Source: Geosiphon pyriformis uo1 (lineage: Eukaryota; Fungi; Glomeromycota). From it: 64,000 nucleotides of DNA. Position 1 is the first letter of the stretch, and each line of letters begins with the position of its first letter. This document shows, one piece after another, positions 5,562 through 61,944 of the stretch. The notes under the pieces were generated by a model that had not been told where the DNA came from, did no database searches, and saw only the letters and a list, made by a program, of their open reading frames with translations. Position numbers and translations under genes: made by a program. Location: contig JAAOMT010000678.1 in NCBI GenBank assembly GCA_016748015.1, forward strand, positions 352,389-416,388, read 5' to 3'.

Positions 5562-8500
5562 ACAGTCAAATGGTTGTCTCACTTTGATTGGTCTTAATGG
5601 TTTACTGGGTTTTGTTCCTCCTCTTCTCTGACAAGCATCACAATTTTGAATATATTGGATAATATTTGGATACATTGATGGCCAATAGTATCTTTTTCTG
5701 GTTCTTTCTATTATTGCTTCTTTATGAAAATGTTCTGCTGTTAGATTTAAATGCATGTTGAACAATATTGTCTCTTTCTCTGGTTCTGTGATTACTCTGG
5801 TTGGTTAATCTGGATTCTTTTTGTTTTTCTGGTAAAGTATATTTCGGTGATTAATAAAATATTTTGATTGTTGTTTTATGTTGTTTTGTTCCTTTTGAGA
5901 TAATTTCTCCTTGAATAATTGAGTATTTATATAATATTAGAGTTGTTAGTATTTTTGTATATTCATCTTTTATTATATTTTTGGGTTGAAATGTTTTTAG
6001 ATTTGTCTTATTTGTGACAAACTGTTGGCATTTCTGTTTTTTTTTTTTTTTTGTAATATACTGTATAATTAAATAGTAAAAGTTCTATTTTCTATCTAAC
6101 ATGGCAATTGTCTCCAAATTTTTGCTTCTGGATTGAAGTCAATCTTTTGTGATCAGTGTACACATTAAACTATTAACTCAAGTATTTTTTCCATTTGATG
6201 ACAGCCCAATAGATAGTTAAGTGTTCCAGTGCTGGAGTTCTATAGATTATTTCAGCTGGACTTAAGCTTTTACTGGCATAAACTACTGGATGTTCTTGTC
6301 TATTTAGTCCTTTCTGAGATAATACTGCTCCCAATGCTTGACCAGATGCATTGGTTGTAATTATAAATGGTTTGCTATGATCTGAATAGATCAGTACTGG
6401 GGCTTGAATAAGTTTTTTTCTTAATGTGTCAAAAGCTTCTTGTTAAGTTTTTGTCCATTCATATTTGGTGTTTTTTATTTGGAGTTAGTATAGTGATTGA
6501 GCTATTTTGGAAAAGTTTTTGATAAAGTAGCAGTAGTATTCAGCAAATCCAAAGAATACTCTTAATTCTGTGAAATTATTTGGTACTAGAAAGTTTTTAA
6601 CAATCTTAATTTTATCTGGATCTGTTTTAATACTGTCTTTGCTTATAACATGTCCCAAAAACTTGAGTTCAGTTTTGCCAAAAAAACATTTGTTTGCATT
6701 TAATTTCAATCTTGCTTATCTGAGTCTTTCAAATACTTGTTGGAGATAATGCAAATAATCATTAAATGTTTTTGAGAACACATTGGTGTCATTTAAGTAT
6801 ACAATTACTGATTTCCATAATAGTCTTGTATAAACAATTTCTATAAGTTGCTGGAAAGTGGCTGGAGCATTCATTAAGCCAAATAGCATAACTTCGAATT
6901 CAAAGTTCCTTTTTTGTGTTATAAAAGCCGTTTTTTCTTTGTTTTCTGGTTTCATGGCTATCTGCCAGTAACTACTGTTTAAGTCTAATATTGAGAACCA
7001 TTTTTTTCCTCTAAAAGCATCGAAAAGCTCTTGAATTTTTGGAGTTGGGTAGCTATTTCTTTTTGTTACTCTATTCAGTTTCCAGTAATCTACACAAAAG
7101 CAGATTTTTCTATTCTTCTTATAGACTAATACTACTGGTAATGACCATGGGCTCATTGATAGCTAAATTAGCCTGTTGTTAAGCATCCAATTAATTTTTT
7201 AATGAATAATCTTGTGGCTGGCTGGTGGTACTCTGTATGCTTTTTGTTTAATTGGCATCACATTTTTAGTCTTAATCTGATGCTGGAAGATATCAGTTCT
7301 GCCAAATTTGTTTTCACTGGCAAAGATGTTATTAAAGTTGTTGAGTAACATTTTGAGTTGCATATATTATAGTGGGTCTAAATTTTCCAAGTTTATTTGT
7401 TCCAATTGTTTTGGTTGGAGTAGATAACATTCTTCTCATCCATATATTGTTTGAGATGTAATATTGACATATCTACACAGTTGTAGAAAGTCTGAAATAA
7501 GGTTTGGCAGTTGGTCTTTAATTTTGGTGGTTAGATATCCAATGTTGGTTCCTTCTAGTATCTCGATGATATCTTTCATGTTGTTGTAAATAGAAATTTT
7601 AATGTGACTGTGGTTTTTGGCTGGTATATGTAGATTAACTAATCCAATTTTTTCTGATTTACAAATTGTTGCTTCTGTCTCAAAAATCTGAATCTGATCT
7701 TTCACTTTTCTCTTTATGACTACTATGTACTAATTGTATGGTGAAATAAAAATTGATTGATGAGTGGAGATAATTTCTCTCTTGTCAATAACCTCTTCTT
7801 TTGCCATATTGACTGGTATCTCTATTCTACCTGTTGATCTAAATCTTTGTATTCTTCTAGCTGTAATTCCTGATTCTTTTCTGTTTCCTATTAATACTAA
7901 TTAAACTACTTTAATTAGAGGCAGGAATATTGCCTGTGCTATTTTTTTATTTGGCTCTATGATATAGGCCTTTTTTGAGTCATTTTGCAACATAGCAATG
8001 ATATTTCTCACATATTTTGTGTCAATTATTCCTCCTCTGATGTTGATTCCTTTTTTTACTAAATTACTCTTGAATGCTAATTGAACCATTGTTGTTGCTA
8101 GAATTTCCAGTGCTATTTTAAGATTAATGCAGGTACATAAGTGTGGTTCCAATTTGATGGCATCTTTTTCCAGATATCTTAGATCAAATCTTGCATCAAT
8201 ATTATGCACACATTCTGGCATAATGTCTTCATTGTTATTGCTAAACCATTTAAGTTCTTGCTTCTTGATAAGATCAGAAAGCACGATGTATTGTTTGGAA
8301 TTTGAATTGGAGTTTAAATTATCATAATTTTTGTTGCCATTTTAAACAAAGCTGGAACTGTTATTTTTGTTATCATCATTGTCAGAGTTTGAATTGGGAT
8401 TGAAAGTTGATCTCAATTTTGATGTGCAGCTGTTGATTGGTTTTTTCTCTTCCAGGATTGTGTAGATCATGTGTAGTGGTGGATTGTAAATAAGGTTACA

Positions 8501-11500
8501 CTCATTACAATATTAAAAGTCACATGGAATTAAACAGTAGTTACATAGTCTTGTGTTTATTTCTTCCAAATATTGTTCTTGCTTTTCTTTTGTTGGTGCC
8601 AAGTTCTGATAGTGCTCATGAAACTCTTCTGGACCTGTTTCTATGTTGAGAAAAGCATCTGGATTTGAGATGAGGACAACATTGACTGGTTCTGGAGGGT
8701 TATTTTTGATTTCTAATATTTTACTGGATGTGGTTCTTTTGACTTTGGTATTCACCATCTGCCAGATCTCATTCTTGTTATGTAGATAACCATCCAAATG
8801 GGTTATTGCTTGGTGCCAAGCTGTAATAATAAGAGTGCCATGACTGATCCAGTCACTTATAAGGATTGTGTATTGGCATGAAGTGCCACATATTCCTTCT
8901 TGACCAGGAATGTTGTTTCACATTCCTTTATCAAGCAACTGTTCTCCATAAGTGAGACATGGTTCATTGTCCCACTTGTCTTGTCATTTCAGATAGCCAT
9001 ACTATTCTTGGTAGTATGACTTGTAATAATAATAGGTTTTTGTCCAGTAATCTTTGTCTGGCACAACCCAAGCTCCCATGGAAGACAATTTTTTCTTGTA
9101 GTCTTTACATCTGAGTAAAATATAAGGTGGTTCTGGCCTGGTATTAGTGGAATATAAACTTCTCCAATTACTAGTTTCTGTATTGTCCATGTTCTCTTCT
9201 GGTATGTCTTCTTCCTTTTCTTTCCTTTTTTTTTTGTCTTTTTCTTTCTAGTCTAGAATTGGTGATAGCTCATTGTAGTTGTTATCAGCCCAAAAGATTT
9301 GGTATGCTTCCCAGATAGGTTTTTTTTCTTCATTGTCAAACTCAATGAGAGATACTGCTGGCATGGTGATGAATTTGAAGTGACCACATGTGGCAGGTAT
9401 CTGTGTGTGTTAACTGTTCTGGCTAAGCTGTAGTTCCTGCATGTTCCAATTGAGCACAGAATTTGTTTTGACTAGCCAGTTATTACCAACTAATACTCAG
9501 TACTGCATAGCTTTTATTACCAAAACTTTGATTGGAGTAATAATACTGTTTACTTTAAAGGGAAAATTATTGATCTCACTGATAAGAGTTTTGGTTACTT
9601 CATCAGCCGTTATTATCCTGGCACTAGTAGTGCAATTAACTCGATGATCTAATTGGTTTATGAATTGTTGTGTAATGATGCTGCCTGCTGATCCACTATC
9701 CAAGATCAATTTAATGGCCTGTCCATTAACTTTGATGTCAGTGCATATTGCTGTAATAGTTTTTTTCTCTATTGCAGCTCTACTGAACAAAGGGATTTCT
9801 GACAGTTCTTCAATTTTGAAGAAATATAGCTGCAAGTAACTCATCTTCCATGATAGTGGCTGGTGGGATATTGTTGGTGGTAAGTAGTTGTATTTGATTA
9901 GTTTCCACATTATTGGATGAGGTGTTTTTTGAGATAACCAAGAGACTTAAATAGTGTTGGGTATTCAGGTTTTGGGTGTATCTGGTGTCCGAATTTTATT
10001 GTCAAGATTCTGATGGCTGAATTGAGGAACTGGGGATTGGTTGATGGGCTACCATCAATGATCTCTAGCTTTGTTGTGTTAGTCTCAGTCTTTGAGTTTT
10101 GTTTTAAGGTAAGTTGTGTGGTGGTGTTTGAATTTGTTGGGGTTGATAAATTACTTGAGACTGTGACTGATAGATAGGCTAGAATTGCAATTGATACATG
10201 ATGGGTTTTGTTAACTAATAAATTGGAGCTTAATATATGGGTGGTTGATAAATTAGTTGTTGTGTCATTTGAATGTAATGAGGTAAGTGTTGATCCTAAT
10301 TTGGGTATTGATTCGGAGCTTAAAATTTGCAATCGGGGTGTCAATATTAGTTTCCTGATTGTTGGTTATCTAGTTTTAACCTACAGTCAATTCTCAAATG
10401 TCTTTGTTTACCACAATAGTAGCAAACATATGTCTTCTGCTGTCATAGCTGATTGGATGATGGTTGAGGATGTAACTGGTTTTGGGAGTAATTCATGTTT
10501 CCCTGATTATTGTGTCATTGTGAAGATTAATAAACTGCTTGATTGTTAGCTAAGTATCCCTCTAATTTTTTGTCAATGGAATTACTGAATTGTTTCAGCT
10601 TAGAATCCAATTCAGATAATCTATTCATTACTAAATTGACAGCTTGAGTGTAATTAGCTTCAAGTTTGGTGGATTTGAAATTCTGTATATTGGTAACTGT
10701 ATCTTGGAGAGTTTATAAGTGCATTGGGCATATGTATTGGAGAATACTACTGTACAGTCTACAGATAAACTGGTTTAGAATCTGTAGTACTGTAAAATAG
10801 TCAGCTTGGATTGCTTAAATTTGGTGCAAGTTCCTGTGAAAATGTCCCAAGTAAGTGGTAATGGCTTCAGTTTCTTCCTGTTTGATTGTGGTGAAGGTAT
10901 TGGCTAGGCAATTAATACTGTTATTATTACTAAAGTATCTTAAGAAGGCAATTTTAAATTCCTGAAATATTTAAGATTTAGCAGCTAAACTTTGATACCA
11001 TGAGTTAGTGGTATCTTGTAAGAAATAGAGGATGGCTTGGAGTGCCCTGACATTATTCCATCCATTGGCTGTAATGGCTTTTTATACATCATTTAGCCAC
11101 ACTTGTGTGTCATCCTCTTTGCCTGTGAATTTCTCAAGTTTGGCTATTGGAACATAGGCCATTGGATTCACATTTGGTTGTTGTGATAGTTAAAGAGATA
11201 GTGGTTGAGGTGATATTGGTGGCTGTTAAAGTTGTTTAACAATTAGATCAATTGGTTGCTGATTGATGACAATTTCTGGAAATAAGTTTTCCTGATTAAT
11301 TAACTTGGAGTTTGGATTATTTGGAGTTTGCTGGGTTTGAATATTTAAGATTTCAACTTCCAGATTTTCTGCAATCAGATTTTGATAATTAAATTTTTGA
11401 TCCTCTTTTTTCTCTTCTTCTGATGTCATTATCCCTCAAGGACTTGTGTTTCCGAAATCTGGTTGAAATGGTGGTAATTGAAATTCTGATGGCATTGGCA

Positions 11501-13441: not shown

Positions 13442-13449
13442 TCAGTGAT

Positions 13450-15632: not shown

Positions 15633-18600
15633 AGTGAATTTGTTGTTGGTGTTAATCTTGTCTCATTCTTGAAAGACTATTAACATTGGTGTGTAGTTTT
15701 CTTGGTTTGTAATATACAATATATTTGTATTCTGCTAGAAAGTTATTTTATTAAGACTGTTTGATACTTTGTTCAGTTTTCTTTTTATTGAACCATTTGA
15801 AGCCAATATTGTCAATTATGATGTCAAATTCTTTTTTATTTTTCAAATATTGTTGAAAATGTTTAATAGCCCAAATAACTACAGCAGCTTCTAATTCAGT
15901 TGAGCCATATTTGAGTTCTGTTAGCTTGAGTGTTCTACTAGCATAGGCAATGACTTGTTCCTGGCTATTTTTATCCAATTGTGATAGAATGGCACCAAAA
16001 ACTATATGTGAAACATTAGTGGCTAGTTGGAACTGTTTGTTGAAGTCTGGATAAGCAAAAATTGGGGCTGTTGTCAATTTTGTTTTGAGAGTTTCAAAAG
16101 CTTTTTGTTGTTTTTCAGTCTATTTGTATGGTACATTTTTGTTGGTAAGATAATTAAGTGGTTTGGCAATTTTTGAGAATTTTTTTATGAATTTTTGATA
16201 GTAAGAGGTTAATCTTACAAATTCTTGTAACTTTGTAATATTTTTAGAAGTTTGAAAGTTTTTGACAGCACTGATTGTTCCAGGATTTGGTTTAACTCCA
16301 TCTTTACTGACAATGTATTCAAGAAAATTTAAGCTTGTTTTTCTAAAGTGACATTTTTCAATATTCAATTTTAATTCTGCTTTCCATAATCATTAAAAAA
16401 CTTCTCACAAGTAGATAAGATGGGCTTCAAAGCTTGGTGAATATACATCAGTATTATCAAAATAGACAACTATTAATTGCTATAAAAATTCTTTATATAC
16501 AATATTCATAAGTTACTGGAATATTGCTGGTGCATTACAGAGTCCAAAAGGCATAACATTAAACTCATAATTTCTTCCTTGGGTGGTAAATGCTGTTTTG
16601 GGTTGATTTTTTGGGTTCATTTCGACTTGTCAGTATTTACTTTCCAAGTTTAAAGTTAAGAAGAACTTGGCTTTTCTTAGAGCATCTAGCATGTTATTAA
16701 TTCTTAGAAAAAGGTAGGCATTTCCAATTGTCACATTGTTTAGTTAGTAATAGTTAACACAAAATCTAATATTTCCATTTTTTTTTAATAAGAACTACTA
16801 GTGAGACCCAAGGACTTCTTAATAGTTGAATCAATTCATTATTGAGCATTTTCTGAACTTTTTTTCTGATGAATTGGTGGCTGACAGGTGGCACTCAATA
16901 AGCTTGTTGATGTTTTGGTAGAGCATCTCTTGTGTGGATTTAATGTTGAACAATATCAGTTTTTCTAAGATCATTGTTGTTTTTTGCAAATATGTCAGCA
17001 AATTCAGCTATTAACTGTTTCAATTGTTTTTGTTGTTGAGGTTTTAAGGGACTCATGTTGATTTGAGAAAGTTTTTCTTCCAAAAGATGGTAGTTTTCAG
17101 TAGTAGCAATGATGTTTGAATTGGAAAGTAGAATATGTTTTACAATTTCGATGAAATTAGAAACAATTTGAGGGTTTTTATCCTGAAAGATATTACTATA
17201 TATAATTTCAATTTTTAATTTATTTAATAGAACAATAAGGTAGTTGTTGGGATTGTAAAATATAACTCAAAATTTTTTCATTCTTTTAGAAATATAAACA
17301 TTTGGGATTGAGATTTAATGCTTTAAACAAATTTGTTTATTGAATTCAAAGATTTGTTGAGTAGTAGTGAGTTTTGAGCAAGTGTAAATTTTGTGATGTT
17401 TTCCAAAAAGTAAAATAGTAATTGGTTGGAGAAGTTGAAAAATCTGGTGAAATTCATTTTGTGTATTGAGAGCTATGTTTACTAGAACTGTAAATCGTTC
17501 AATTAAACCAAAATCTTGAGTTTCTCTATCACTTTTTCCCAATTGTTTTCTGTTGTTAACTGATTGTAAATCCGAAATTTTAATTAAAAATAGGTAAATT
17601 GCTTGGGCAATCTTTTCAGCATGTTCAATCCTAAATGGTTTGTTTGTTTCATTCTGTAACATGATGGTAATGTCTTCAGTATATCCTGTATCTATAACTC
17701 CTCCTCTAATATTGATTTCTTTGTTTGTCAATGATAATCAAGAAACAATTTGTACCATTGCTCCTGGTGGTATTTCAAAAGCAATTTTAAGGTTGATTTT
17801 GGTTAAGAATTTTGGTTAAGGATTTTGGTTAAAGAACCAAAGTGTTTTTGCCAAGATATCTAAGGTCATATTTTGCATCAATTTTATGGGCTTTTTCTGG
17901 TTTCATTCTTTGTCTATTGTTGTCAAAGTATTTAAGTTGTATAGCAGGCTGGTTTTTAGTAAGATAGATTGGTGTTGTTGTGATTTCTTCTTTTGTTTCA
18001 GATTTCCCAAATTTAATTTCTTTCTGGTTATTTTTACTGGGCAGAAGAATGCTAAGAGCATAGCATTCTGAACACCATTTGTCATTACAAGGCATGATGT
18101 ATTCTTCACACAATTGAATGTTTATTTGCTCTAATTATTGAATTTGAGCTTTTTGGGTTGGGTATGTGTGGCTTGCAATTTGGTGATATGTCTCTATTTC
18201 ATCTTTATAGTTGAATCCAGCTAATTCCATTGTGTATTCAATGTACTCAGCTTCTTTCATTTGTTGGATATCTTTCTGTGTGGCTCTATTAATTAAAGCC
18301 ATTGCTAAATCAAAGATTATTTTAGCATTATAAAAATAGTGATAGAGTTTGTTAAAAGCACTGTTGTATGCTGCATCAAAAGATGTTCCTCTTTTAATTT
18401 TTTTCGAAATTAATAAGGCATATTGGCAGGTTTGATCACATACTCCTCCTCTTATTGCAATATCAATCCAGTTGCATTCTTCTGGTAACATATTTTCACA
18501 TGTAAAACAAGAAGTGTTGTCCTATTTTCCACTTTTTTTGGAATATTTAAACTGTTCCCTATGACATGCTTTACAGTAGTAATAGGTGCAAAGTTTTATA

Positions 18601-21321
18601 TTCTTCTTCTGGAGAAATATATGCTCCCATTAATAAAAGTTTTTTGTTGTAATCTTTGTATTTAAGTGGGATGTAGAGTGGTTGTTTCCATGGTTCTGGT
18701 GTAGAATATCTAACTACATTCCATCTTTTGGTCTCCTCAAAGATTTCTTGTTCTGTTTCTTCAGCCCAATTGGATGGTGATCTAAGAGCTATAAAGGTTT
18801 TAGTGATTGGTAGTTCTTTTTCCTCTTCAAATTCGAATACTGGGACTTCTTCAGATTTTTTATTAAAAGTACCACAGGTGGCAAGTACTTTAGTGTATTG
18901 TCCTTAGTATGAAATCTTCAATTCCTGGGTTTTCCAATCTAAATTTGCATTGGTCTTGAAAAGCCAATCATTTCTGACACAAGCTTGGTATTGGAGTGTA
19001 TTCATGACTAGAATTTTGACTAGAATGGTAATTTTATCAATGGTAAATAAGAAATTGTCAATTTCTCTTACTGGTGTCTTTTTTATATTATCTGCTATAA
19101 CAATTACAGTTTGGACTGGTCTGTTAACAGTTCTTTGAAGCTGTTGCATTAACTGGTAGATGATAATATTTCTAGTTAATCTACTGTCTAAGATTAACTG
19201 AATTGGTTTTTTTTTTATTTCAGTTTCTGTATACATAGTAGTAATTGCTTTTTGTTTATTGACTGCTGTATTGCTAAGCAAGAATGGTGATTTATTTGCT
19301 TCAAATTCGAATGGGAATATATCTGAAAGATTGGTATTTTGAGCAATTTGGACTGGTGGAATAGTATTATTGGAAGGGTTTGATCTTGGTGCTGCAACTT
19401 CACCTTCAAAAAATGCAGTTTGTTAAAAATTCGATTCTTCAGGCATTGTAAGATAACTGGGTTGAGTGTAATAGTGGTTGGGTCTTTGCTGACCAGAATT
19501 TTAGGAAACCAACTGGTTGTTTAGATTGATTCTGCTGTTATTATTATGAAACTAATTTTAAGATGTGAATTGGTTTTGTTGAACCAATCTTCAGGCAGGT
19601 ACTTAATATTGTTGTGTATGTGGCTGTTAATACTGTTGGATTGGTGAGAGTTGTTGATATTGTTGCTGTAAAGCAAATTAATAGTAATTGGTTTGCTGTT
19701 GGAGTCTTAAAAAATAGTAGGCTGGTGATAATGGCTGATAATGAGATTGCTGTGTTGAAAAGTAATGTTGATTAATTCTGTTTTGTTGGTCTCTTTGTAG
19801 CTTTCTGTAATCTCATTTCCAATGTTCTGGAATCCCACAATAATGACAACTTTGGTTTTGACTGTTTGATAATAATAAGTAGTTGGTTTGGTTTTGTTGT
19901 TGTGGTGGCTAATATCTTTGTGATTGTTGCTATTGTTGCTGGTTAGTGAAATAGTTTTCAAACTTCTTTGTAAGTTAGTTAATTTTTTCTTCAGCTGTTG
20001 AACTGGTTTTTTCAATAGCAAGATTCACAAGTTTGGTATAATCTGCTTCTTCTATTGTCATTTTATAGTTTTTTGCATGTCTAATGGCTGTTGCTAAGTC
20101 TTCTGGAGCATGTGGGTGAACTTTTTTGATTAACTTGTCTTTCAATTCTGTTATAAACTGATCCATAATCTGGGTATTGGAATAGTATTCATTGGTTTCC
20201 AATTGTTAAATTCATCAAAAAAGTTTGTTGAATCTTCCAAGATAGGTTATGACAGTTTCAGATATTTCTTGTTTGATATTGCAAAAGTGATTGTGGAGAG
20301 TAATAGATGTGTTGTTATTGGTGAATTGTTGTAAGAAAACATCTTTGAATGCTTGCTAGTTTTCAAATAGTTCTTTTAAGTTTTTAAATTATTCTCTTGT
20401 AGTTCTTTAAAAAAAGTATGAGATTGCTTTGAGCATTTTTGCTGTATTTCAACCATTTGTATCTCCTGTTTTTTGAACTTTGTCAAGTCATTTTTGAGAG
20501 CTGGTATCATTATCTTTACCAGTAAATTCTGGAATTTTTGCAATATAAGCAGTTATCATTTTTTTTTTGTTTTTTGTAATTTCTTCTAGTTTTAATTCAG
20601 TTTCTTTACTTTCTAAGTTTTCTGAATAATTACTTTTGTTTTCCTGTAAGTAATCAAAAAGATTGGTGCTGGTTGATATTGGTTTTTGCTATTGAGTAGG
20701 ATTTTTAGGTGACTGAAAATTTTCTGGTCTGGAGAAGTGGTTAAGTGATGAATTTGGTATTTGTGATTAAGCAAGTGAAATTGAAAATAGTGTAATAGAA
20801 AGTAGTAATTTGATACTGGTTCCTTGTTCAGATATTTGTAAGTTTTTGGTAGTTGTTTTTGGTGTTTTTGGAGTATTTGGGGTAGTACTTGAGTGTTGTT
20901 TCAGTTTTTGTTTGTCTTTGTTGCTTGTTTCTGTCTCTGATTCAAAGTCAATAGAGTATTTAAACTGTACTGGATATGTTTCTTTGCAATACTTGATAAT
21001 ATTAAAATTAAGTTTTTGAAAGTAAGTGGCAAGTATTTTACTGTTAAGGTTTTTAGTTCCCAATTGTGAATAGTGTATTAAATTATTGTAGAAGTTGCTT
21101 CTAACTTCTAAAATATTGTAATTTCCAAAAAGATAATTGTTAATGCAGTTTTTAATATACTGGTAAAGTGTCTTTTTAACAATTTCAATTCCATCTGGAA
21201 TGTTGAATCTCAGTTTGCAATGGGTGTAAATTGACTGATAATACTCTAGAGTTGTTGTGTCTGGTGTGGTCACTATTTTGAAGTTGTTATTGCTGTATTA
21301 TTTCCATGAAAGAGCACCAAA

Positions 21322-25323: not shown

Positions 25324-25408
25324 AAGAAGTATGAGTAAAAAAAGTCAAACCAGCATTGTCCATTTTGGCTAACAGGTCTATAACTGTAATCAATAAACTG
25401 TTTACTAT

Positions 25409-29200: not shown

Positions 29201-32200
29201 AAAGTAAGCAGCCATCAATTTGGACTTAAAAAGACAAAAAAAAAAAAAAAAAGAAAAAAGAAGAATCAGTGCCAGCCATTACTGCCACTTATAGTCCATA
29301 CACCTATACTTTACCACAATCATTTAATTATTGCTGACCAAAACTCGTATGCATCAATTGTGGTAAGAAATTGTCATTAATGGGTGTGTGCTGTGATGAC
29401 AATAAAAAATACTCTATAGCAACCAAATTTTACTGCTGCCTATGTGTAATAAAATGCTTTGGATGACCAAAATAACAAGAAAAATGGGACAATGAATCTT
29501 GTCTCACTTGTGAAAAAACTTTATTAAATAAAAGAATGTGAAACAACATTCCTAAACGAGGAGGAATCTGTAACAAATTATGCCAATACACAATTCTAAT
29601 CAATGATTAGGTAAGAAAAGAGACTTCCATAAAAACTGCTTGGAAAAAAGCAAAAAAAATAAGAATGATCAAAAATAACTCACCAGAACTCATAAAACTT
29701 GACTAAGGCCCAAACCCAGATATTATTATAGAGCTGATAAACCCAGAACAATTCTATGAGCACTACCAAGAATTAGCACTCACTCAAGAAAAACAAAAGC
29801 AACAGTTAAAAGAACTAAACACACAATTATGTGACCATTGTTTGATTCTCTGTGACTTCCAATATTGTAATGAGTGTGACCTTATTTACAATCCACCATC
29901 ATGCATAATCTACACAATCCTGGAAGAAAAAAAACCAATCAGCAGCTGTGCATTAGAATCAGAATCAACTTTTAACTCCGATTCAAATTCTGACAATAAT
30001 GACAATGAAAACAACAAATCTAGCTCTATGTAAATTAGCAACAACAATGACAACAACAATTCAGACTTAAATTTAAACCCCAAACAATATATCGCACTCT
30101 CTGATCTCACCAAGAAGCAGACTCTGAAATGGTTTAGTAATAATAACAAAGACATTATGTCTAAATGTGCACATGATACAGATGCAGAGTTTGATTTGAG
30201 ATATCCAAGAAAAGATGTCATCAAATTAGAACCATATTCACACATCTGCATTGATCTCAAAGTAGCACTAAAAATCCCAGCAACAACAATAGTTCAATTA
30301 GCATCTAGAAATAGCTTAGCAAAAAAAGAAATTAACATTAGAGGAAGAATAATTGATGCAGAATATATAAAAAATATTATTGCTATGTTACAAAATGATT
30401 TAGAAAAGACCTATATCATAGAGCCAAATAAAAAAATAGCACAGACAATATTCCTGTCTCTGGTTCAGATAGCTCAATTAATGTTAGTGAGAAACAAAGA
30501 AGAATTAGAAATTACAGCTAGAGGGATACAGGGTTTCAGATCTACAAGTAGAATAAATATATTAATTAATATAACAAAGAAAAAAATTGTTGACAAGAGA
30601 GAAATTACCTCCACCCATTAATTAATTTTTATTTCACTATATAACTAGTACATGGTAACTATAAAGAAAAAAGTAAAGGATCAGATTCAGATTTTTGAGG
30701 CAGAAGCAACACTTTATGAATCAGAAAAAATTGGGTTAGTTAATCTATACATACCAGCCAAGAACCACAGTCATATCAAAATTCCTATTTACAACAACAT
30801 GAAAAACATCATTAAGATATCAGAAAGAACTACTATTGGATATTTAATTACTAAAATTGAAGACCAATGGCCAAACACCAGTTCAGACTTTCTACAACTG
30901 TGCAGATATGTAGATATTACATCTCAAACAATATACAGATAAGAAAAATATTATCTGCTTTAACCAGAACAATTGAAATAAATAAACTTGTGAAATCTAG
31001 ATTCATTACAACATATGCAGCTTAGGATGTTACTCAACAATTTCAATGACATCTTTGCCAGTAAAAATAAATTTGGTAGAATTGACATAATTCAGCATTA
31101 GATCAAGACTGAAGATGCAATGTCAATCAAACAAAGAGCATACAGAGTACCATTAGCCAGTCATGAGATTATTCATTAAGAAATCAATTGGATGCTTGAC
31201 AATAGGCTAATTTAGCCATCAATAAGTCTATGGTCATCACCAGTAATACTAATTCATAAAAAGAATGGAAAGATTCACTTTTGTGTGGATTACCAGAAAC
31301 TTAATAAAATAACCAAGGAAGATAGCTACCCAACTCCAAAAATCTAAGAACTTTTTGATGCTTTTGAAAGAAAAAAATGGTTCTTAACATTAAACTTAGA
31401 TAGTGGTTACTGGCAAGTGGCCATGAAACCAAAAGACAAGAAGAAAATAACTTTTACAACCTAAAAAGAAAATTCTGAGTTTGAAGTAATGCCATTTGGC
31501 TTGATGAATGTGCCAGCAATATTTCAATGACTTATAAAAATTGTCTATACTAAACTACTATAAAAATCAATAGTTGTATATCTAGATGACACCAACATAT
31601 TCTCCAAAACATTCAATGATTATTTGCATCATCTTAAACAAGTATTTGAAAGACTAAGAAGAGCTGAATTAAAATTAAATACAACCAAGTATTTCTTTAG
31701 AAAAACTGAAATCAAGTTTTTGGGACATGTTGTAAGCAGAAATGATATCAAAACAGATTCAGACAAGATTGAGGTAGTCAAGAACTTTTCAGTACCAACC
31801 AACTTGACAGAACTAAAAACATTCTTGAGATTTGCTGGATATTACTGCCACTTTATCAAAGACTTTTTTAAGATAGTTCAATCACTACACCAACTTTAAA
31901 CAAAAAACACCAAATACAAATAGATAGAAATTCAACAAAAAGCTTTTAATATACTGAGAAGAAAACTTATTCAAGCTCCAGTGTTGATATATCCAGATTA
32001 CAGCAAACCATTTATTATCACTACTGATGCATTAGGCCAAGCATTAAGAACAGTACTATCACAGAAAAAACTGGATGGAAAAGAACATCCAGTAACATAT
32101 GCCAGCCAAAGTTTGAGTTCAGCTGAAAAGAACTATGGGACACCAGCATTAAAACATTTAGCAATTTATTGGGCAGTCAGGAAATAGAAAAAATACTTGA

Positions 32201-35492: not shown

Positions 35493-35506
35493 AAAGGAGG
35501 AAATAA

Positions 35507-45039: not shown

Positions 45040-45320
45040 TTAAAAAATTTAACAGCATTAAAACAATAACTTTTAATTATGACTATTAATAAAGTATTAA
45101 TTTTTTATTTTTTATATATTTTATTTTTTTGTTTTGTTTTGTTTTGTTTATATTAATTAATTAATACAAAAATAAATATAAAATTAATTTATTAATAAAT
45201 AAGATTGTTTATTAAAAGAGTAAAAAATGCCAAAATAAATTAATTATTATGCTAAAAAAATGAAACATTAAGTATTGCTGTTATTACAACTTAAATTTCT
45301 GTTTATTATACAAAAAACTT
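45040..45320 (+). repeat. Heavily decayed LTR-A-related remnant
   Basis: caataacttttaattatgactattaa and tctgtttattatacaaaaaact match two LTR-A landmarks in the correct order. Confidence 0.55.
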
Positions 45321-46059: not shown

Positions 46060-46342
46060 TTATTTATTAAATATTTAATAAGCACAGTCTAATTACTACC
46101 TAAAGATATAAAATCAGACAAAATTCTAAGTTAAGTATGATTTATACACTTTCTATATGTAACCAGTCACTCAAGCTAATTAAAACAGTACTATACATCT
46201 AAATTACTTATCAAAAAAATATTATGCAAAAAACTAAAATCTAATCTGAACAAATAACAATATAAACCAAAGCAAACATGAATATCTAATCTAATACTAA
46301 AACTATAACATAAATTAAAAGACCACATAGATAACAGACTGA
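46060..46342 (-). mobile_element. 3' end of a third LINE (ORF2 C-terminus and tail), interrupted by A4
   Basis: The tail is homologous to 42549-42646. Upstream on the minus strand is a coding-like end, FSIRLDIHVCFGLYCYLFRLDFSFL. Confidence 0.7.
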
Positions 46343-51518: not shown

Positions 51519-52366
51519 TGTTATAGTGATTATTTGGGGTCTCAAGTTAAATAACAAATCCATAACTTGGTGCTCAAAAGCTATTTGTGTTGATAATAAA
51601 CTGAAGGTTTTGGGATCTGAAGGTTTTCCAATGAGTCCTTTGTATAATGGACAGAGATTCAATAGTTGTTTTATTCATAGCTTCCCAGACTCGCAAGTCT
51701 GTCAATTTTTTTCTCAGCTTGGTGGCTGGCAATCCTCTGGTAAGTAATCCATATCTTCTATACATGTCCTACTCATTCACAGAGGTCTTTTACCAGACAA
51801 TCCTTGACGTCAGTAATCAGCACTTTTAATCAATTGGTTAGTGCACAATAACAAAATCACAGAAAATAAAGAAAATAACAAAAAATAAAGAAATGTAAAG
51901 AAATAAGCCAAGATGTTTGGTAGATTAGTATTCTGTCAATAGCCATGATTAAGAGCTATTGTTTTAGTGTGGTTAAGTATTAATTATTATCAACATGAAA
52001 TATTAATAGTGATGAGTGGATTGAGATATAAAATAATTATTTATTTGATGATTTTGTTTCTAGATTAAGGATTCTGTAGTATTAATTCTGTCTTTTTTGT
52101 TTCTAATACTACTGCTATATATACATATTTAAGATTCTTCAATTCCTCGATTCTTTACGACAAGAATCCTAGAATTCCTGGAATCCTGTGATTCCTTTGA
52201 GAGGAATTCTGAAATTCTGGAATCCTGTGATTCCTTGTTAGGGAATTCTGAAATTCCTGGAATCCTGGAATTCTTGAGAGGAATCCTGGAATTTCACATT
52301 TACTACACCTACTTTTGATTGGCTAATAATTATATTAATATATTTCCTATATTTCTATAAGTAACA
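51519..52366 (-). repeat. 3' LTR of A5 (848 bp)
   Basis: Direct repeat of 60768-61599, preceded on the minus strand by the PPT AAAAGAAGAGAA. Confidence 0.95.
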
Positions 52367-52379: not shown

Positions 52380-53002
52380 TTAATATTGAGCTCCATCGAA
52401 ATCCAACTCATTTAATTCCTCTTCTTGAAGTATTTCCTGGACTTTGTTTTCGAGAATTATTTGTATTATTTGGGTCTGTAATTCTTTAAATTGAGCATTG
52501 GTGATCTTTCCCAATTGATTACTGATAACCATATCCATTGCTTTGTTAAGTAATATTTCTGGTCTATTCTGAAATGCTGTGTGTATTTGGTATATGGCTC
52601 GGGCCTGTGTGGATAAGTTGTTTTTTCTCACAAAATGTTCTAATTGTTGTAGTATTCTTTTGTCGAATAATCACTTTGTTTTATCCGTATATAGATTCTG
52701 GATATTTAGGTATTGTCCCAAGTAAAAATAACAATAGTTTTGTAGAAATTGTTGTATCCACTAATTCCAAGTTTCTTTAGTCAACTCTTGATATAGTGAC
52801 TCTTTTGTCGATTCTCTTATTGTTAATTTTACTTTCATAATGATTTTGTCTACTGTATTTTCAGTTTTCTTCTGTGTTCTGGGTTGTAATGTCTTTCTAG
52901 TATTTTGATATCGAATGGTTTGTTGATTGATTGTAATCTTCATTTCCTGATTAATTGAAAGAGTTGTCATGCTAGTGAGTAAATGTTGTCTGTAATTTCC
53001 AT
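52380..53002 (-). pseudogene. ORF3 of A5 (7-nt deletion near the 5' end)
   Basis: Fragments 52761-52970 and 52380-52631; ATG at 53002; stop at the PPT. Confidence 0.85.
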
Positions 53003-53056
53003 TTTTTTGATATTTTCTGTCGTGTCTACTGTGTCTTTATATATTCTTTTTATGAA

Positions 53057-54439
53057 TCAATTTAACATGTTGTTGTCGATAATCATGATTGGTTCCAGAT
53101 CTCGTGGAATCTCATCTGGTTGGACTAGTATTCTCTGTACTCCTAATTGTAGAATATTACTGGTGGATGATAATATTATACTGTAGTATGATTTTAGTCA
53201 ATCTCTATGTGCTACTTTGGTTAAAATTTTGTTATTCAGTTTTAATTTGTAAGCTCCATTCCCTAGAATTTCTTCTATGTGAAATGGTCCATCCCATTTG
53301 GAGTCAAATTTTCCACTTCATTGTTTTTCCGCTTTGGTATGATGTAAGAGTACTTTGTCTCCAATCTGGAATTCAACTGGTTTGTCTAATAGTTGATTAT
53401 TATGCCTTTTTTTCTGTTTTTCTTGTAACTTTTGAATATTATCAGCTGCTTTTCTTTGTTTGTTTTCCAATGTTTCTATTAAGTCATATGTTCTTCTCAG
53501 CAATGTTTTTTGAAAATTTTCTTCTGTTATTGGTTCAGCTGGATATGTATTAATTTCTTTTTTTACTGGTAATGTTGCTGTTCTACTATATACTAATTCG
53601 AATGGTGTTGCTTGTGTAGTATCTTGCTTCATTGTCCGATAAGCAAATAATACTGATGGTATGAACAAATCTCATTCATCCTGGTTTTCTTGACTGAGTT
53701 TGGCAATTGCTTCACACAATGTTCTGTTGAATCTTTTGACTAATCCGTTGGTTTGTGGATGATATGGTGATGATAGTGGTCTCTTAATTCCGAATCTTTG
53801 GCTCAATTCTGTTAATGTTCTGTTCACAAAATGAGTTCCTTGGTCTGATAATAATTCCTTTAGACATCCATGTCGACAAATTAAATCTTGATAAACAAAT
53901 TTGGTAATGGATTCTGCATCCGCTTTTTGAATTGCTTTCGCCTTTGGCCATTTAGTAAGATAGTCTATGGCTACTGCTATATATCTGTTTCCTCTGCTGG
54001 TGATTGTTAATGGTCTGACTAGATCAATTCCAATCCAGTTAAATAATTGTCCCACTTTGATTGGTTTTAATGGTTCACTGGGTCTTGTTCCTCCTCTTTA
54101 CTAACAAGCATCACAATTTTGAACATATTAAATGATGTCTGGGTACATTGATGGCCAATAGTATCTCTTTTTGGTTCTTTCCATGGTTGCTTCTTTGTGA
54201 AAATGTCTTGCTGTTGGATTTGAGTGCATATTGAATAATTTTGTCTCTTTTTCTGGCTCTGTAATTACTCTGATTGGCTGATCTGGATTCCTTCTATTTT
54301 TTCGATAAAGTATATTTTGATGAGTGATAAAATATTTTGATTGTTGTTTGATACTCTTTTATTCTGTTTGAGATAAATTCTCCTTGAACTGTTGAGTGTT
54401 TATATAATGTTACAGTTGTTGATATTTTTGTATGTTCAT
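53057..54439 (-). pseudogene. Stand-alone integrase ORF of A5 (461 codons; HHCC, DDE and GPF; no chromodomain)
   Basis: Starts MNIQKY. Motifs H..H..YYWP..CDAC, IGIDL, LLSDQGTHF, NGLVKRFNRTL and KWDGPFHI. 1383 nt in a single frame. Confidence 0.92.
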
Positions 54440-54500: not shown

Positions 54501-57500
54501 TTAGATTTGTTTATTTATGACAAACCATCAGCATTTCTGTTGTCTTTTCTCTTTTTATAATATATAGTATACTTATATAGTGTGAGTGCCATTTTCCATC
54601 TCCAAATTCTTGTTTTTGAAGTGATATTAATCCTTTGTGATTTGTGTATACTTCAAACTTCTGATTCAAGTATTCTTTCCATTTCATGACTGCCCAGTAT
54701 ATTGCTAAGTGTTCTTGTTCCAGTGTTCCATAGTTCTTTTCGGCTGGTGTTAAACTTTTGCTGGCATATACTACTGAATGTTCTCTGCCATCTGGTCCTC
54801 TCTGAAATAGTACTGCTCCCAATGCTTGGCTGGATGCATTGGTGGTGATGATGAATGGTTTGCTGTGATCTGGATAGATCAGTACTGGAGCTTAGATGAG
54901 CTTTCTTTTCAGAATATCAAAAGCTTCTTGTTGACTTTCTGTCCATTCATATTTTGTATTCTTGTTTTGTAGTTGGTTGAGTGGCTGCGCTATTTTGGAA
55001 AAGTTCTTGATAAAACATTGATAGTAGCTAGCAAATTCCAAGAATGATTTCAGTTCTGTCATATTGGTCAGCACTGGAAAGTTCTTTACTATCTCTATTT
55101 TCTCTGGATCTGTTTTGATGCTGTCTTTGCTGACTATGTGTCCCAAGAATTTTAGTTTTGTCTTGCTAAAGAAGCATTTTGTTGCATTTAACTTTAGTCC
55201 TGCTCTTCTTAGTCTTTCGAACACTTATTGAAGATGATGAAGATAATCATCAAATGTTTTTGAAAATACATTGGTGTCATCCAAGTATACAACTACTGAT
55301 TTCCACAATAAGCCAGTATAAACAATTTTCATTAGCCATTGGAAAGTTGCTGGGGCATTAGTTAAGCCAAATGGCATTACTTTAAATTCGAAATTTTCTT
55401 CTCTAGTAGTGAATGCCGTCTTCTCTTTATTGGCCAAATTCATGGCTACTTGCCAGTAACTACTGTCTAAGTCTAATGTTGAGAACCATTTGTTCCCACC
55501 GAAAGCATCAAATAATTCCTGTATTCATAGAATTGGATAGCTGTCTCCATGAGTTACACTATTGAGTTTCCTGTAGTCTACACAAAATCAGATTTTTTCA
55601 TTCTTCTTACAGATGAGTACTACTGGTAATGACCATGGGCTCATTGATGGCTGAATTAGCCCATTGTCAAGCATTCAGTTTATCTCTTAATGGATGATCT
55701 CGTGGCTAGCTGGTAGTACTTTGTATGCTCTTTGTTTAATTGGCATTGCATCTCCAGTCTTGATCTGATGCTAGATAATATTAGTTTGGCCAAACTCATT
55801 TTCGTTGGCAAAGATGTTATTAAAATTGTTGAGCAACATTTTGAGCTGCATACGTTGTAGTGGGTCTAGATTTCCTATGTTCATTTGTTTTAATTGTTTT
55901 GGTTGAAGTAAATAACATTCATCTTGTCCATAGATTGTTTGTGATGTAATGTCAACATATCCACAAAGTTGTGGAAAGTCTGGAATGGGGTTTGGTGGTT
56001 GGTCTTCTATTTCTGTGGTTAAATATCCAATGTTGATTCTTTTTGGTACATTGATGATATTGCCAGTGTTGTTGTAGATGGGAATTTTTATGTGGCTATA
56101 GCTTTTGGCTGGTATGTGGAGATTGATCAGCCCAATCTCTCTTGATTCACAAAGGTTTGCTTCAGCTTCAAAAATCTGTTCTTGCTCCTTTTTCTTCCTT
56201 TTTATTGCTAGCATATACTGGCTATATGGTGAAATGGAAATAGCTTAACCGGTTGAGATAATTTCTCCTTGGCCAACAATTTTTTCCTCTGCTATATTAA
56301 CTGGTACATCTATTCTACCTGTTGACCCAAATCCCTGTATCTCTCTTGCTGTTATTTCTAATTCTTCCCTGTTTCCCACTGACATTAATTGAGCTATTTT
56401 AACCAGAGGCAGGAATATTGTCTGTGCTATCTTTTTGTTTGGTTCTATAATATAGGCCTTTTCTGAGTCATTTTGTAGCATGGCGATGATATTTCCTATA
56501 TATTCCACATCATTTATTCCTCCTCTTATATTAATCTCTCTTCTTGCTAAACTACTCCGGGATGCTAGTTGAACTATTGTTGTTGCTGAAATTTCCAGCA
56601 CTATTTTCAGATCAATGCAGGTGCGCAAATGTGGTTCCAATTTGATAACATCTTTTCCAGGATATTTCAGATCAAACCCTACATCGATATCATGTGCTCA
56701 TTCTGGCATAATGCCTTCGCCATTGTCACTGTACTATTTCAACTCCTGTTCTTTGGAGAGATCTAGTAGAGCAATGTATTGTTCGTAGTTAGGATCGAAG
56801 TCTGAATCATTGATATTTTCGTTGCCATATTGTGCAGAGCTGGAACTGGTGTTTTCATCATTGTCATTGTCAAGGTTTGAATTGGGATTGTAAACTAATT
56901 CTGATTCTGATATGCAGCTGTTAATTGGTTCCTCTTCCTTGGGGATTGTGTAGATCATGCGTGGTGGTGGATTGTAGATGAGGTCACACTCATCACAATA
57001 TTGGAAGTTACATGGAATTAAACAGTGGTAACATAACCTGGTGTTTATTTCTCCCAAGTGTTGTTCCTGTTTCTTTCTTGTGGGTGCTAATTCCTGGTAA
57101 TGTTTATGGAATTGCTCCAGATTTAGAAAATTTATGACTGGTTCTGGGTCCCAGTCAAGTTCTATGGGCTCTGGAGAATTGTTTTTGATTTCTTTGATCT
57201 TTTTGGGTGTTGCTCTTTCTATTTTGGTAATTGCTATTCTCCAAATTTTGTCATCATCATGTGGACAACTGTCCAGTTGCTACATGGCTCTTTTCCAGGC
57301 TGCCTCTATTGGGGTTTCTTTCCTTATCCAGTCACTTATTAAAATTGTGTATTGACACAATACATCGCATATTCTTCTACATTCAGGAATGTCATTCCAC
57401 ATCTCTTCATCTAGTAGGATCTTTCCACAAGCAAGACAAGATTGGTTATCCTATTTTTCTTGCCTCTTTGGTCACCCAAAGCATTCGAGTAGGCATGAAC

Positions 57501-60500
57501 AACAGTAGAACTTTGTTGTAGTGTGGTATTCCTTATTGTTACCACAGCATGCACCCATTGATGACAGTTTCTTGCCATAATTGACGCATACAAGTCTTGG
57601 CCATCGATAATTGGATTGTTGTGGAGTGTGGTGGGTGTAGGAATTATAAATGGTGACAGTTGGTGGCGTTCTTTCTTTTTTTTCTTTTTCTTTTCCCTTA
57701 TCTTTGTTCTATTCCCAACTTGAGGCTTCTTCTTGTTTGTTGTCAATCCAAATCAAATCATTGGTTTCCCAGGTAAGTTTGTTTGTTTGCTTTCCTTTCC
57801 CATTGTCATCCCAAGAGAGTATTGGTGGCAGCTTGTTGTGCTCTTTGTCAGCCCATGACACTTGGTAGGCTTTCCAGGTAGGTTTTGGTTTCTCTTCCTC
57901 GAAGTCGATTAGTGGTGCTGTGGTGTTGGTAGTCTTAAAGTGGCCACACATTGCTGGTACTTGCATGTGTTGTCCGTTCTGGCTGAGTTAAAGCTTTTGG
58001 GTATTCCAGTCCAGAGTGGTGTTCGTCTTGGACAGCCAGTCATTACTAACTAGAGCTTGATATTGGGTAGCTTCTATGATGAGTACTTTGATTGGTACTA
58101 TGATGCTGTTAATTTCGATTGGTAAGTCATCGATTTTGCCGATTAGAGTCTTGATTGCTCCATTAGCCATGATGATTCTGGTGCTAGCAGCTCAATCAAC
58201 TCAGCAACCTAATTGATCCATGAGTTGTTGTGTGATGATGCTGCCTGCTGAACCACTGTCAAAAATTAGTTTGATGGGATGGCCATCAATTTTCACATCA
58301 GTGTACATAGCGGTAATTGGCTTTTTTTTCAGTGTGGCTCTACTAAATAATGGCATGGTTGACAGTTCCTCAAGTTCGAATGAAAAAATGGCATCCAGAG
58401 ATTTGTCTTCCATGATTGTGGCAGGTGGAATGTTGCTGGTAGATGTTTGTCTGAGTTCCTGGTTGTTGGGTGTGGCATTTTCTGGAATAACCAGGAGACT
58501 TAAATAGTTTTGGGAATTCAGGTGTTGGGTGGTGCCAGTTTCCGAATTCCAAGAACAGAGTTCTGAGCTTTGGTGAGAGGAATTGGAGATCGGTTGATGA
58601 ACAACTATCGCCAATCTCCAATTTTGAGCAATTCTGGATCTTGGATTTCCTGATGTCATTGTAGCTAAGTTTTAGAGCAGTGTTTGGATTGATGGTTAAG
58701 TCTGATAAATTATTTGGGGCGGTGGCTGATAAATTACTGGAGGCTGCTGTTAATAAATTGCCGGTGGCTGTGGTTGATAAACTGGAATTTGATATACTAG
58801 TAGTTAATAGATTGATTGCTGCGTCATTGGCAGGTAAGTATTTTGATATTGGTCTTGGTTTTGATTTGGATAATGATTCAGAGTTTGGAACTGGCAATCA
58901 GGGTTTCTGTATTGATTTTCCGATTGTTGGTTGCTATAAGTATGACAATTAACTCGAATATGGCTTTGTTTACCACAGTTGTGGCAGACATGCGTTTCTG
59001 GCTGCCACGGCAGACTAGGTGCTGTTAAGGATAATGGACGTGATTGATTTTGGAAACAATTCATGTTTCCTGAATTATGGCGTTGTTGTGGTGTTTGATA
59101 TATGGCGCGATTGTTAGCTAAATACTCCTCTAATTTCTGATTAATTGATTCGCTAAAATGTTTTAATTTGGAATCCAATTCAGATAATCTATTTATTACT
59201 AGGTTTACTGCTTAGGCATGGTTGGCTTTTAACTTAGCTGCTTCAAAATTTCTGGCATGTGTAACTGCAGTAGGGAGGTCAACTGGATGCATTGGGCATA
59301 CTCACTGAAGGAAGTTACTATGCAAATTTCTAATAAATTGGTTTAAAATCTGTGGTGCTGTAAAATAGTCAGTTTGAATTGCTTGGATCTGGTACAGGTT
59401 TCTATGGAAGCATTCTAAGTAAGTAGTGACTACTTCAGTATCTTCTTGTTTAATAGTGGTGAAAAGGTTGGCTAACTTGTTGATGCTATTATTGTTGCTG
59501 AAATATCTTATGAATTCTGTCTTAAAGTCATTGAAGGTTTGAGATTTGACAGCTAGACTTTGATACCATGCATCTGTGGTGTCCCTTAGAAAGTATGGGA
59601 TGGCTTGAAGTACTTGAGTGTCATTCCACCCATTCACAGTAATGGCTTTCTCTATATCATTTAGCCATAGTTGCATGTTGTCTTCTTTGCTGGTAAAGTT
59701 GTCAAGTTTTGCGATTGGTACATAGACCATTGGATTTAAGTTGGGTTGTTGTGGTGGCTGTTGAAGCAGTTGTTGTTGTACTGGTTGTTAGAGTGGTAGT
59801 TGAAATGGCTGTTGTATGGATTCAGCTATTGGATTAATTGGCAGTTGCTTGATGACAATTACTGGAGATAAGTTTTGCTGATTAATTAATTCGGGGTTTG
59901 GATTGTTCTGCCTTTGATGATTCGGAGTTTCGATTTCCGAATTTTCTAAATTTAGATTTTGCTGAGCTTGAAAATTTGGGGTTTCAACTTCTGGGTTTTC
60001 AGTGATCAGGTTCTAGTAAGTAAATTCTTGATCTTCCGATTCTTCCTCTTCTTCCTCAGATAGTTCCCATGGGGTAACAGTTCCAAAGTCTGGCTGAGGT
60101 GGTGGTGATCAAATTCTTGATGGCGTTGGTGATTGTGATTTAAATCCTTTGAAGTATTTGCCATATGGTCCTAATAATTCTGTTTTCTTTTGTTTACTTT
60201 GGAATAGAAATTGTCCAAATGTTGATGCCATGTTTGATGTGGACACACTTATTGATAAAATGTTAATGGTGCTTCTGGGTGTATAGTGATAAGATGGATT
60301 GGTTGAGGATTCAACTTTTGTTTTCTTCCAAGTGGGTGGTTGTATTCTTTTAGGTATTACTGCTGATGTTTGTAGTTTTTCTTTGCCTTTATTAGCATAT
60401 GTAATTAGATATCTTTGTTGAGTGTGATGTTCAATTTTTTGGTTGATCTCAGTGATAATGGATGCAAAATTATGATTTGTTGGTAGATTGGTGTTTTGAA

Positions 60501-60767: not shown

Positions 60768-61599
60768 TGTTACAGTAATTATTTGGGGTCTCAAGTCAAA
60801 TAACAAATCCATAACTTGGTGCTCAAAAGCTATTTGTGTTGATGATAAACTAAAGATTTTGGGATCTGAAGGTTTTTCCAATGAGTTTTTTGTATAATGG
60901 ACAGAGATTCAATAGTTGTTTTATCTATAGCTTCCCAGATTTGTAAGTCTGTCAATTCTTTTCTCAGCTTGGTGGCCGGCAATCCTCTAATAAGTAATTC
61001 GTATCTTTTGTATGTGTCCTACCCACTCGCAGGGGTTTTTTACCAGGCAATTCTTAATGTTAGTAATTAGCACTTTTAATCAATTGGTTAGTGCACAATA
61101 ACAAAATCACAAAAAATAAAGAAAATAACAAAAAATAAAGAAATGTAAAGAAATAAGCCAAGGCATTTGGTAGATTAGTATTCTGTCAATAGCCATAATC
61201 AAGAGCTATTGTTTCAGCATGATTAAGTATTAATTACTATCAACATGAAATGTTAATAGTGGAGAGTGAATTGAAATATGAAATAATTATTTATTTGATG
61301 ATTTTGTTTCTAGGCTAAGAATTCTGTGATATCGATTCTGTCTTTTCTGTTTCTAATACTACTGTTATATATACATATTTGAAATTCCTCAATTCCTTAA
61401 TTCTTTATGACAGAAATCCTGGAATTCCTAGAATTCTGCGATTCTTTTGAGAGGAATCCTGGAATTCTGGAATCCTGTGATTCCTCGTCGGAGAATCCTG
61501 CAATTCCTGAGAGGAATCCTGGAATTTTATATTTACTATGTCTACTTCTGATTGGCTAATAATTATACTAATATATTTCCTATATTTCTATAAATAACA
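60768..61599 (-). repeat. 5' LTR of A5 (832 bp)
   Basis: TGTTAC...ATAACA ends, adjacent to the PBS and the TSD. Confidence 0.95.
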
Positions 61600-61944
61600 A
61601 CACATTCTGGCATAATATTTTTTCTACTATTATTAAACCATCTTAATTCCTGCTCCTTAGCAAGATCAAAAAGTGTAATGTATTGTTTGGGATTTGAATT
61701 GGAGTTTGAATTGTTGTTATTATTGTTGTTATTATTTTAAACAGAGCTGAAATTATTGTTATTGTTATCATTGTCAGAGTTTGAATTGAGATTAAATGGT
61801 AATTCCAATTTTATTTTGTAGCTATTGATTGGTTTTTTTTTTCCAGAAATAGTATAGATTATGCATGGTGGTAAATTGTAAATGAGATTACACTCATTAC
61901 AATATTAAAAATCACAGAGAAATAGATAGTGTTGACAAAGTTGA
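61600..61944 (-). mobile_element. Continuation of A4 (end of the Cys-rich domain and acidic linker)
   Basis: Joins 51518 across the ACAC TSD and encodes LCQH..CDF*YCNECNLIYN. Confidence 0.88.

Follow-up and report, generated by a model that had tools for sequence, protein, structure and literature searches.

A conserved cysteine-rich domain between protease and dUTPase in Ty3/Gypsy elements of Geosiphon pyriformis

The Pol polyprotein of a Ty3/Gypsy retrotransposon family in the fungus Geosiphon pyriformis contains, between its aspartic protease and its dUTPase, a cysteine-rich domain with three Cys clusters. We studied this domain in the element A5, which is part of a nest of decayed long terminal repeat (LTR) elements that fills a stretch of 64,000 nt (contig JAAOMT010000678.1, positions 352,389 to 416,388; hereafter the window, in whose numbering all coordinates are given). 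The domain is a selected part of Gag-Pol under purifying selection, it is unnamed as far as our searches reach, and it adds a real, if modest, component to the repertoire of such elements.

Anatomy, conservation and selection of the domain

In A5 the Cys-rich region occupies positions 56986..57594 of the minus strand, from a Leu codon starting at 57594 to the last Cys codon at 56988-56986, and its about 203 codons share one frame with Gag, protease, dUTPase and reverse transcriptase (RT). This is where a preliminary description, made from the letters alone, had placed the motifs that it quoted. The A5 copy is decayed: it contains three stops, and Tyr (57579-57577) replaces the second Cys, a position that is Cys in most other copies according to one public DNA run. 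Cluster 1 (57493..57588, minus) has the pattern C-x2-C-x24-C-x2-C and corresponds to finger 1, a predicted treble-clef finger that is mildly basic together with the linker that follows it. Cluster 2, or finger 2 (57355..57438, minus), reads C-x2-C-x19-C-x3-C, a TRASH/FCS-like spacing, and continues into a helix. An acidic body of predicted helices (57036..57345, minus) includes the helix leading to cluster 3 (56986..57033, minus), whose five Cys are arranged as C-x2-C-x3-C-x4-C-x2-C and where the confidence of the structural model is low.

The domain is present in four A copies of the window, in a divergent family B and as a piece in the element A4, so that the distribution given in the preliminary description could be retraced copy by copy. 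Apart from A5, the copies are located at 121..732 (A1, minus), 8498..9109 (A2, minus, with a finger 1 that resembles family B), 29350..29877 (A3, plus, with 27 codons of the helical body deleted) and 18063..18660 (family B, minus, with one frameshift near 18600). The A4 remnant at 61821..61943 (minus) comprises cluster 3 only; A5 has inserted between it and the A4 dUTPase.

The number of motifs by itself does not set the domain apart from chance, since 339 of 25,344 six-frame windows of 215 codons contain at least five C-x2/3-C motifs, many of them antisense; conservation does. Family B has kept 14 of 16 A-family Cys, as compared with 74 of 178 residues other than C, H and W, and the equivalent numbers are 13 of 17 and 73 of 181 for P0156, a stop-free protein of 1064 aa with the order protease-domain-dUTPase-RT from a metagenome assembly. 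We sorted 256 proteins into seven groups (254 assigned), six of which were compared column by column; these six lineages are 41-68% alike and the groups are supported by a tree of 31 rows. Thirteen Cys are conserved in the three clusters (P0001 numbering: C38, C41, C66 and C69; C88, C91, C111 and C115; C223, C226, C230, C235 and C238), with 11 of them being the majority residue in all six lineages and the other two in the five lineages with data. Cys accounts for 91% of the residues at 12 core sites (1289 of 1421), and 96 of the 132 exceptions are Tyr. Tyr at a core Cys site is the product of a G-to-A change and thus fits decay after insertion: 84 of the 87 LTR differences are transitions, found in CA, CT, CC and CG contexts and not at CpG alone. 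Gaps in many database rows result from gene models that skip stops. Residues on the surface are variable, whereas Cys, Trp and Gly are kept. The multi-zinc-type module of the preliminary description, for which zinc binding is predicted, therefore survives the comparison across families with its three clusters conserved and selected. The double Cys of its consensus motif SSMGACC does not: the pair at positions 51-52 is lineage-specific and replaced by W-I, C-I, C-S or T-I in other lineages.

The six pairs of A copies differ in the domain by proportions of 0.54-0.77 at synonymous sites (pS) and 0.16-0.29 at nonsynonymous sites (pN). In the four pairs with unsaturated synonymous divergence omega amounts to 0.10-0.35; the corresponding values are 0.10-0.19 (protease), 0.08-0.20 (RT) and 0.15-0.44 (linkers). 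The family is very abundant, as 13,019 contigs of one DNA run align to 2.1 kb of it; no RNA data set was listed as containing the domain.

A profile search of 1.84 billion representatives retrieved 434 matches at E 0.001, and our statements on range rest on the 150 of them that were listed. Of ten divergent matches that were looked up nine are from Geosiphon and one is P0156. In another search, which found 178 relatives, all 120 that were listed are named Geosiphon pyriformis. Among 254 database proteins, probed with retroelement segments only, 121 are domain-only pieces and 133 contain a further retroelement domain; of the latter, 130 have the order Gag/protease-domain-dUTPase, two continue into a following Gag and one is a tandem repeat. 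Four proteins have long flanks that these probes do not account for. A host gene that could have donated the domain was not seen among the matches examined. Pattern scans of metagenome and viral contigs revealed no relative, and word searches with P0156 matched P0156 itself only, results that carry little weight because known Geosiphon relatives were missed as well. As far as seen, the range is narrow, and the searches outside Geosiphon are weak.

Fold and family membership

A known Pfam retroelement domain, an outcome for which the preliminary description had allowed, does not emerge: among the families shown for sets of 41 and 60 members (25 of 39 families for the 60), none matched the domain above its own cut-off. 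PDB sequences provided nothing under E 0.16, the best value in the ESM Atlas was 0.78 without a lead, and a comparison of the three clusters with hhalign did not reveal them as repeats of each other (probability 0.1 or less). A first fold of the window copy, with a predicted local distance difference test (pLDDT) score of 63 and a predicted template modeling (pTM) score of 0.32, matched only generic helices. The second one, an AlphaFold2 model of the P0156 domain based on 60 rows (pLDDT 72, pTM 0.47), is of high confidence in the helix of finger 2 and the helical body, moderate in finger 1 and weak in cluster 3.

Foldseek found no match to the second model at E 0.001 among PDB or viral structures; its top rows are nearly all treble-clef fingers such as GATA3 and LIM, with GATA3 in first position (E 0.15, not significant). 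In VIA the best Z score, 5.2, was due to helices, while residues 1-45 of the model aligned with p62 ZZ, Rim2, LIM, FYVE, the PHD-like finger of VAL2, GATA3 (Z 3.3) and chains that we take to be eL24-type ribosomal proteins (up to 4.3), altogether at Z 3.2-4.3 and mostly with a root-mean-square deviation (rmsd) of about 2 Å over about 40 residues. In the predicted model finger 1 shows the hallmarks of a treble clef, namely a CxxC knuckle, a hairpin and a helix that starts with the second pair of Cys, and we accordingly predict this fold for it, without assignment to a particular family. A helix also starts at the second Cys pair of finger 2 in the whole-domain model, but no zinc-finger row aligns to finger 2 alone. 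The helical body and the five-Cys cluster 3 match nothing that was found. The fold search does not show a new fold, because the parts of the domain were not folded singly. In total, the domain is predicted to bind three zinc ions.

The likeness of finger 1 to treble clefs (eL24/TRASH, MYM/FCS, ZZ, LIM, GATA and FYVE) concerns its predicted fold, with TRASH/FCS-like spacing in finger 2, whereas no profile or fold match to these families is significant and the domain lacks the spacing, the His ligands and the second zinc sites that characterize LIM, ZZ, PHD, RING and GATA. PHD fingers are cross-braced by C4HC3 ligands with a conserved His; no His is common to the six lineages in residues 33-118, neither for a PHD nor for an extended PHD finger, and PF13771 matched one of 60 members with 18.8 bits against a cut-off of 29.1. 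In ZZ fingers two Cys and two His form a second zinc site; here the inner CC is not conserved, a His pair is absent, and the fold likeness (Z 3.7-4.0) is common to other treble clefs. GATA fingers (C-x2-C-x17/18-C-x2-C with a basic tail) differ from the spacing of 24 found here, with the said Foldseek E value of 0.15. In LIM domains two fingers stand two residues apart and include a His ligand, while the fingers of the present domain are separated by 18 residues and devoid of His; the LIM family PF00412 matched one of 41 members (E 0.00027) and is absent from the 25 families shown for 60 members. The MYM/TRASH/FCS repeat C-x2-C-x19-22-C-x3-C agrees with finger 2 but not with finger 1, and no such family is among the Pfam families shown for 41 members and for 60 members (25 of 39). 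Neither Pfam nor PDB searches supported a remembered likeness to ADD and YacG fingers.

RING domains are cross-braced by C3HC4 or C3H2C3 ligands. The present domain, for which the preliminary description considered an E3 ligase-like nature, lacks this pattern, as the two fingers have eight Cys in four pairs without His and no RING family is among the Pfam families shown for 41 and 60 members. RING structures do turn up far down the lists of Foldseek, with E values of at least 1 in PDB and at least 0.16 in the viral library, which is expected of any treble clef. A role of the domain as ubiquitin ligase or ligase adaptor is very improbable.

Candidate roles of the domain

The role that we tentatively prefer, by analogy and at clearly less than even probability, is that of a tether that may keep the dUTPase on the nucleic acid of the element, comparable to the retroviral nucleocapsid (NC)-dUTPase. 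The domain would be packaged with Gag-Pol and bind zinc, and the basic and aromatic residues of finger 1 (K43, K44, K82, Y/F64, Y65, F/Y74 and W83) would grip nucleic acid. The acidic body together with cluster 3 would form a stalk to the dUTPase trimer, and the protease would leave domain and dUTPase joined, as in the betaretroviral protein. The enzyme would then be held on the element RNA or the new DNA inside the particle, and the gain would be less uracil in the complementary DNA (cDNA).

This proposal is favored by the fixed order of Gag/protease, domain and dUTPase in the 130 proteins mentioned above, by the selection on the domain and by the predicted finger 1, which superposes on GATA3 and on chains taken to be the RNA-binding ribosomal protein eL24. 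Residues 33-86 have a net charge of +2 to +7 in all six lineages; nucleic-acid binding is plausible for finger 1, the only candidate, the rest of the domain being acidic. Third-position transversions between A copies, which before about 57100 are mostly 0.1-0.45 in the two divergent comparisons, drop to 0-0.15 throughout the stretch that begins with cluster 3 and ends with the dUTPase, as though the two moved together.

The betaretroviral NC-dUTPase remains uncleaved, binds nucleic acid and hydrolyses dUTP (PMC1802613). Its versions in Mason-Pfizer monkey virus and mouse mammary tumor virus share with A5 a zinc-finger module directly N-terminal to the dUTPase in a polyprotein (PMC1802613). However, the betaretroviral NC consists of CCHC knuckles that are derived from Gag by frameshift and precede the protease (PMC1802613), whereas the A5 domain is all-Cys, about 210 aa long, acidic and located after the protease, and Gag keeps a knuckle of its own (58986). 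CCHC nucleocapsid knuckles fused to the dUTPase are hence not found in A5, and the uncleaved fusion of the viral protein contrasts with a joining of domain and dUTPase that is presumed for A5.

Several observations weigh against the tether. With a net charge of -13 to -19 in the five fully covered lineages, the domain as a whole is acidic, which a nucleocapsid protein is not. The protein-binding treble clefs ZZ, LIM, Rim2 and PHD-like VAL2 match finger 1 just as well (Z 3.3-4.0), so the fold does not choose between nucleic acid and protein. The linker before the dUTPase varies from 40 to 90 residues and could hold a cleavage site. An element with only the domain or only the dUTPase was not found, in a search that was not a wide one. 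The drop in divergence near 57100 is significant in one of three pairs (Fisher p 0.003, 0.08 and 1.0), the low stretch is not below RT-RNase H in any pair, and the pair A5/A3 is already low across fingers 1 and 2. Finally, variation among the fingers is greatest in finger 1, which lineages may have exchanged; this would suit a host-facing role.

Such a role, in which the released domain would act as an adaptor that binds a fungal chromatin, silencing or restriction factor via its fingers and acidic surface, thereby allowing the element to evade silencing or to reach its target, is a doubtful but serious alternative, little less probable than the tether; it owes its standing to the acidic body and the variable finger 1, which tell against a tether. 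Its other arguments are an acidic loop of finger 1 that is conserved (positions 55 and 57), the ties in fold with ZZ, LIM and PHD-like fingers, including a ZZ-SANT chain of Ada2 that aligns over 95 residues (Z 4.0, rmsd 5.6), and the strong host mutation of the elements, reflected by the LTR transitions and a CpG observed/expected ratio of 0.14 in the whole window. Finger 1 diverges fast, since its identity between the major A lineage and the A2-type lineage is 43% as compared with 87% for the protease, and it is grouped unlike finger 2: the A2-type finger 1 branches with B, C and P0156 (100/99), the A2-type finger 2 and helical body with A (100/98). On the other hand, a single history for finger 1 was not rejected in the approximately unbiased (AU) test (p 0.14; 22 rows), and the finger 1 mosaic and the divergence drop are only hints of recombination. 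The adaptor is further disfavored by the lack of the ligand pattern of any reader family, by the PF13771 match below cut-off in one of 60 members, by the failure to see a host-gene donor among the matches examined and by the position of the domain, which is not attached to the integrase with its own tail. A more specific version, a swappable three-zinc module that would recognize a host chromatin or silencing factor and either disarm it or steer integration from within Pol without a tie to the integrase, is improbable; if true, the LTR bloom in Geosiphon and related fungi would have been driven by a novel type of device for anti-silencing or targeting.

The acidity of the domain would also be compatible with an internal scaffold, which we regard as rather unlikely. 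Protease and dUTPase are oligomeric enzymes, and the domain could space or oligomerize the dimeric protease and the trimeric dUTPase, or bind the basic Gag or integrase of the element, with zinc being purely structural. Selection about as strong as on the protease and the variable surface around invariant Cys, Trp and Gly argue for such a scaffold. Conversely, three zinc sites are many for a spacer, and published drawings of other Gypsy elements with a dUTPase show no domain of this kind (PMC2864245). An acidic surface and a fixed place beside the dUTPase might finally be expected of a DNA mimic that inhibits uracil-DNA repair and protects the cDNA in concert with the enzyme. Inhibitors of uracil-DNA repair are acidic proteins, but no likeness in sequence or fold to a known one was retrieved from PDB, Foldseek or VIA searches, and we consider this the least probable of all roles.

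The host element and its place among LTR retrotransposons

A5 is a decayed Ty3/Gypsy retrotransposon with two LTRs and a target duplication. The 5' LTR (60768..61599, minus) has TG...CA ends and is followed by a TGG primer-binding site; the 3' LTR (51519..52366, minus), of 87.6% identity to it, is preceded by a polypurine tract. The flanking 4-bp target duplication GTGT (61599/51519) documents that A5 inserted into A4, exactly between the linker of the Cys region and the dUTPase of that element. The gene order is the one of Ty3/Gypsy elements, i.e., Gag followed by a Pol with protease, RT, RNase H and integrase, and a single frame with stops but no frameshifts runs from Gag to RNase H.

Gag (58942..59601, minus) consists of a capsid-like domain (59601-59239) and a CCHC knuckle (58986-58945), and a long N-terminal extension before the capsid-like domain (60750-59600, minus; 213 codons open from 60750) is common to the copies. 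The aspartic protease (57976..58317, minus) has a DSG motif. Between the Cys-rich region and the dUTPase lies an acidic, Asn/Ser-rich linker (56715..56985, minus), which is shorter in family B and P0156. The dUTPase (56317..56712, minus) matches PF00692 with E 5.6e-16 (E 2e-20 in P0156), and at each of the five motif positions checked the majority residue in up to 51 relatives is the expected one, which documents a motif-bearing dUTPase inside Pol. A conserved segment of about 110 aa in the dUTPase-RT interval (56300-55920, minus) exhibits a faint likeness to the C-terminal half of the dUTPase (P0156, E 0.006) and is possibly a degenerate second dUTPase fold. RT and RNase H lie at 54604..55587 (minus), and one frameshift separates RNase H from the integrase (53186..54250, minus; H2C2, core and SH3).

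The preliminary description had also suggested, as one possibility, a chromatin reader that stands in for the absent chromodomain. Besides the missing PHD His and the weak PF13771 match, the location of the module upstream of RT speaks against this suggestion: Pol processing would separate the module from the integrase, and the integrase has its own tail, which makes a chromodomain stand-in unlikely. This unnamed tail of about 270 codons (52390..53185, minus) follows the SH3 domain at the place of the chromoviral chromodomain, has no Pfam match and is a better candidate for targeting than the Cys-rich domain. Tails are also present at about 34680-35500, 47230-48015 and 62765-63340, and the A copies are about 60% alike there. 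A search of three frames each of A5, A3 and B at E 0.01 detected no chromo family, with SH3 being recognized in A5 and B, but a divergent chromodomain could have escaped detection because these copies are decayed. A chromodomain at the integrase C-terminus, as in chromoviruses, is accordingly not recognized in A5.

Further features of the window comprise about 8 kb with a G+C content of about 10% between element clusters (38000-46300) and two regions (22100-25400 and 36340-37800, both minus) that by eye resemble a decayed non-LTR (LINE-like) RT and an ORF1-like frame and have no Pfam match at E 0.01. Distinct from these is a repeat with a length of about 470 to 1000 bases (12984-13451, 21322-22296, 32975-33963 and 43275-43747) that is inserted in several elements, one copy lying inside the A3 integrase.

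A dUTPase between protease and RT is known from fungal Gypsy elements, namely PosPlaTy3-5 of Postia placenta and elements of Phanerochaete and Tuber, which are LTR elements with the same arrangement as A5 (PMC2864245). In contrast to A5 with its three-cluster domain and no chromodomain match, they are chromodomain elements for which no Cys-rich domain is named before the dUTPase in the passages covered (PMC2864245). Juno LTR elements of bdelloid rotifers likewise have the dUTPase between protease and RT and an additional zinc motif adjoining it, but this is a single knuckle after the dUTPase and not a multi-cluster domain before it (PMC5408684); it serves as a further precedent for the tether. 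Inserted domains as such have been noted in a survey of LTR elements in fungi (PMC3248453), and fixed extra domains are described as rare in LTR retrotransposons, where their gain can show host pressure (PMC9289625). We found no description of the present domain in the literature covered; the Geosiphon genome paper, Repbase and supplements lie outside that coverage and could hold one.

The significance of the domain is limited by its narrow range as far as seen and by a function that is a guess. The stop-free natural relative P0156 makes its biochemistry testable. Many "hypothetical proteins" of Geosiphon are explained as pieces of dead elements. Striking LTR expansions have been described for Geosiphonaceae and Ambisporaceae (PMC11952901). 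In a fungus with such an expansion, selection has maintained the domain across at least six lineages of an element family of very high abundance.

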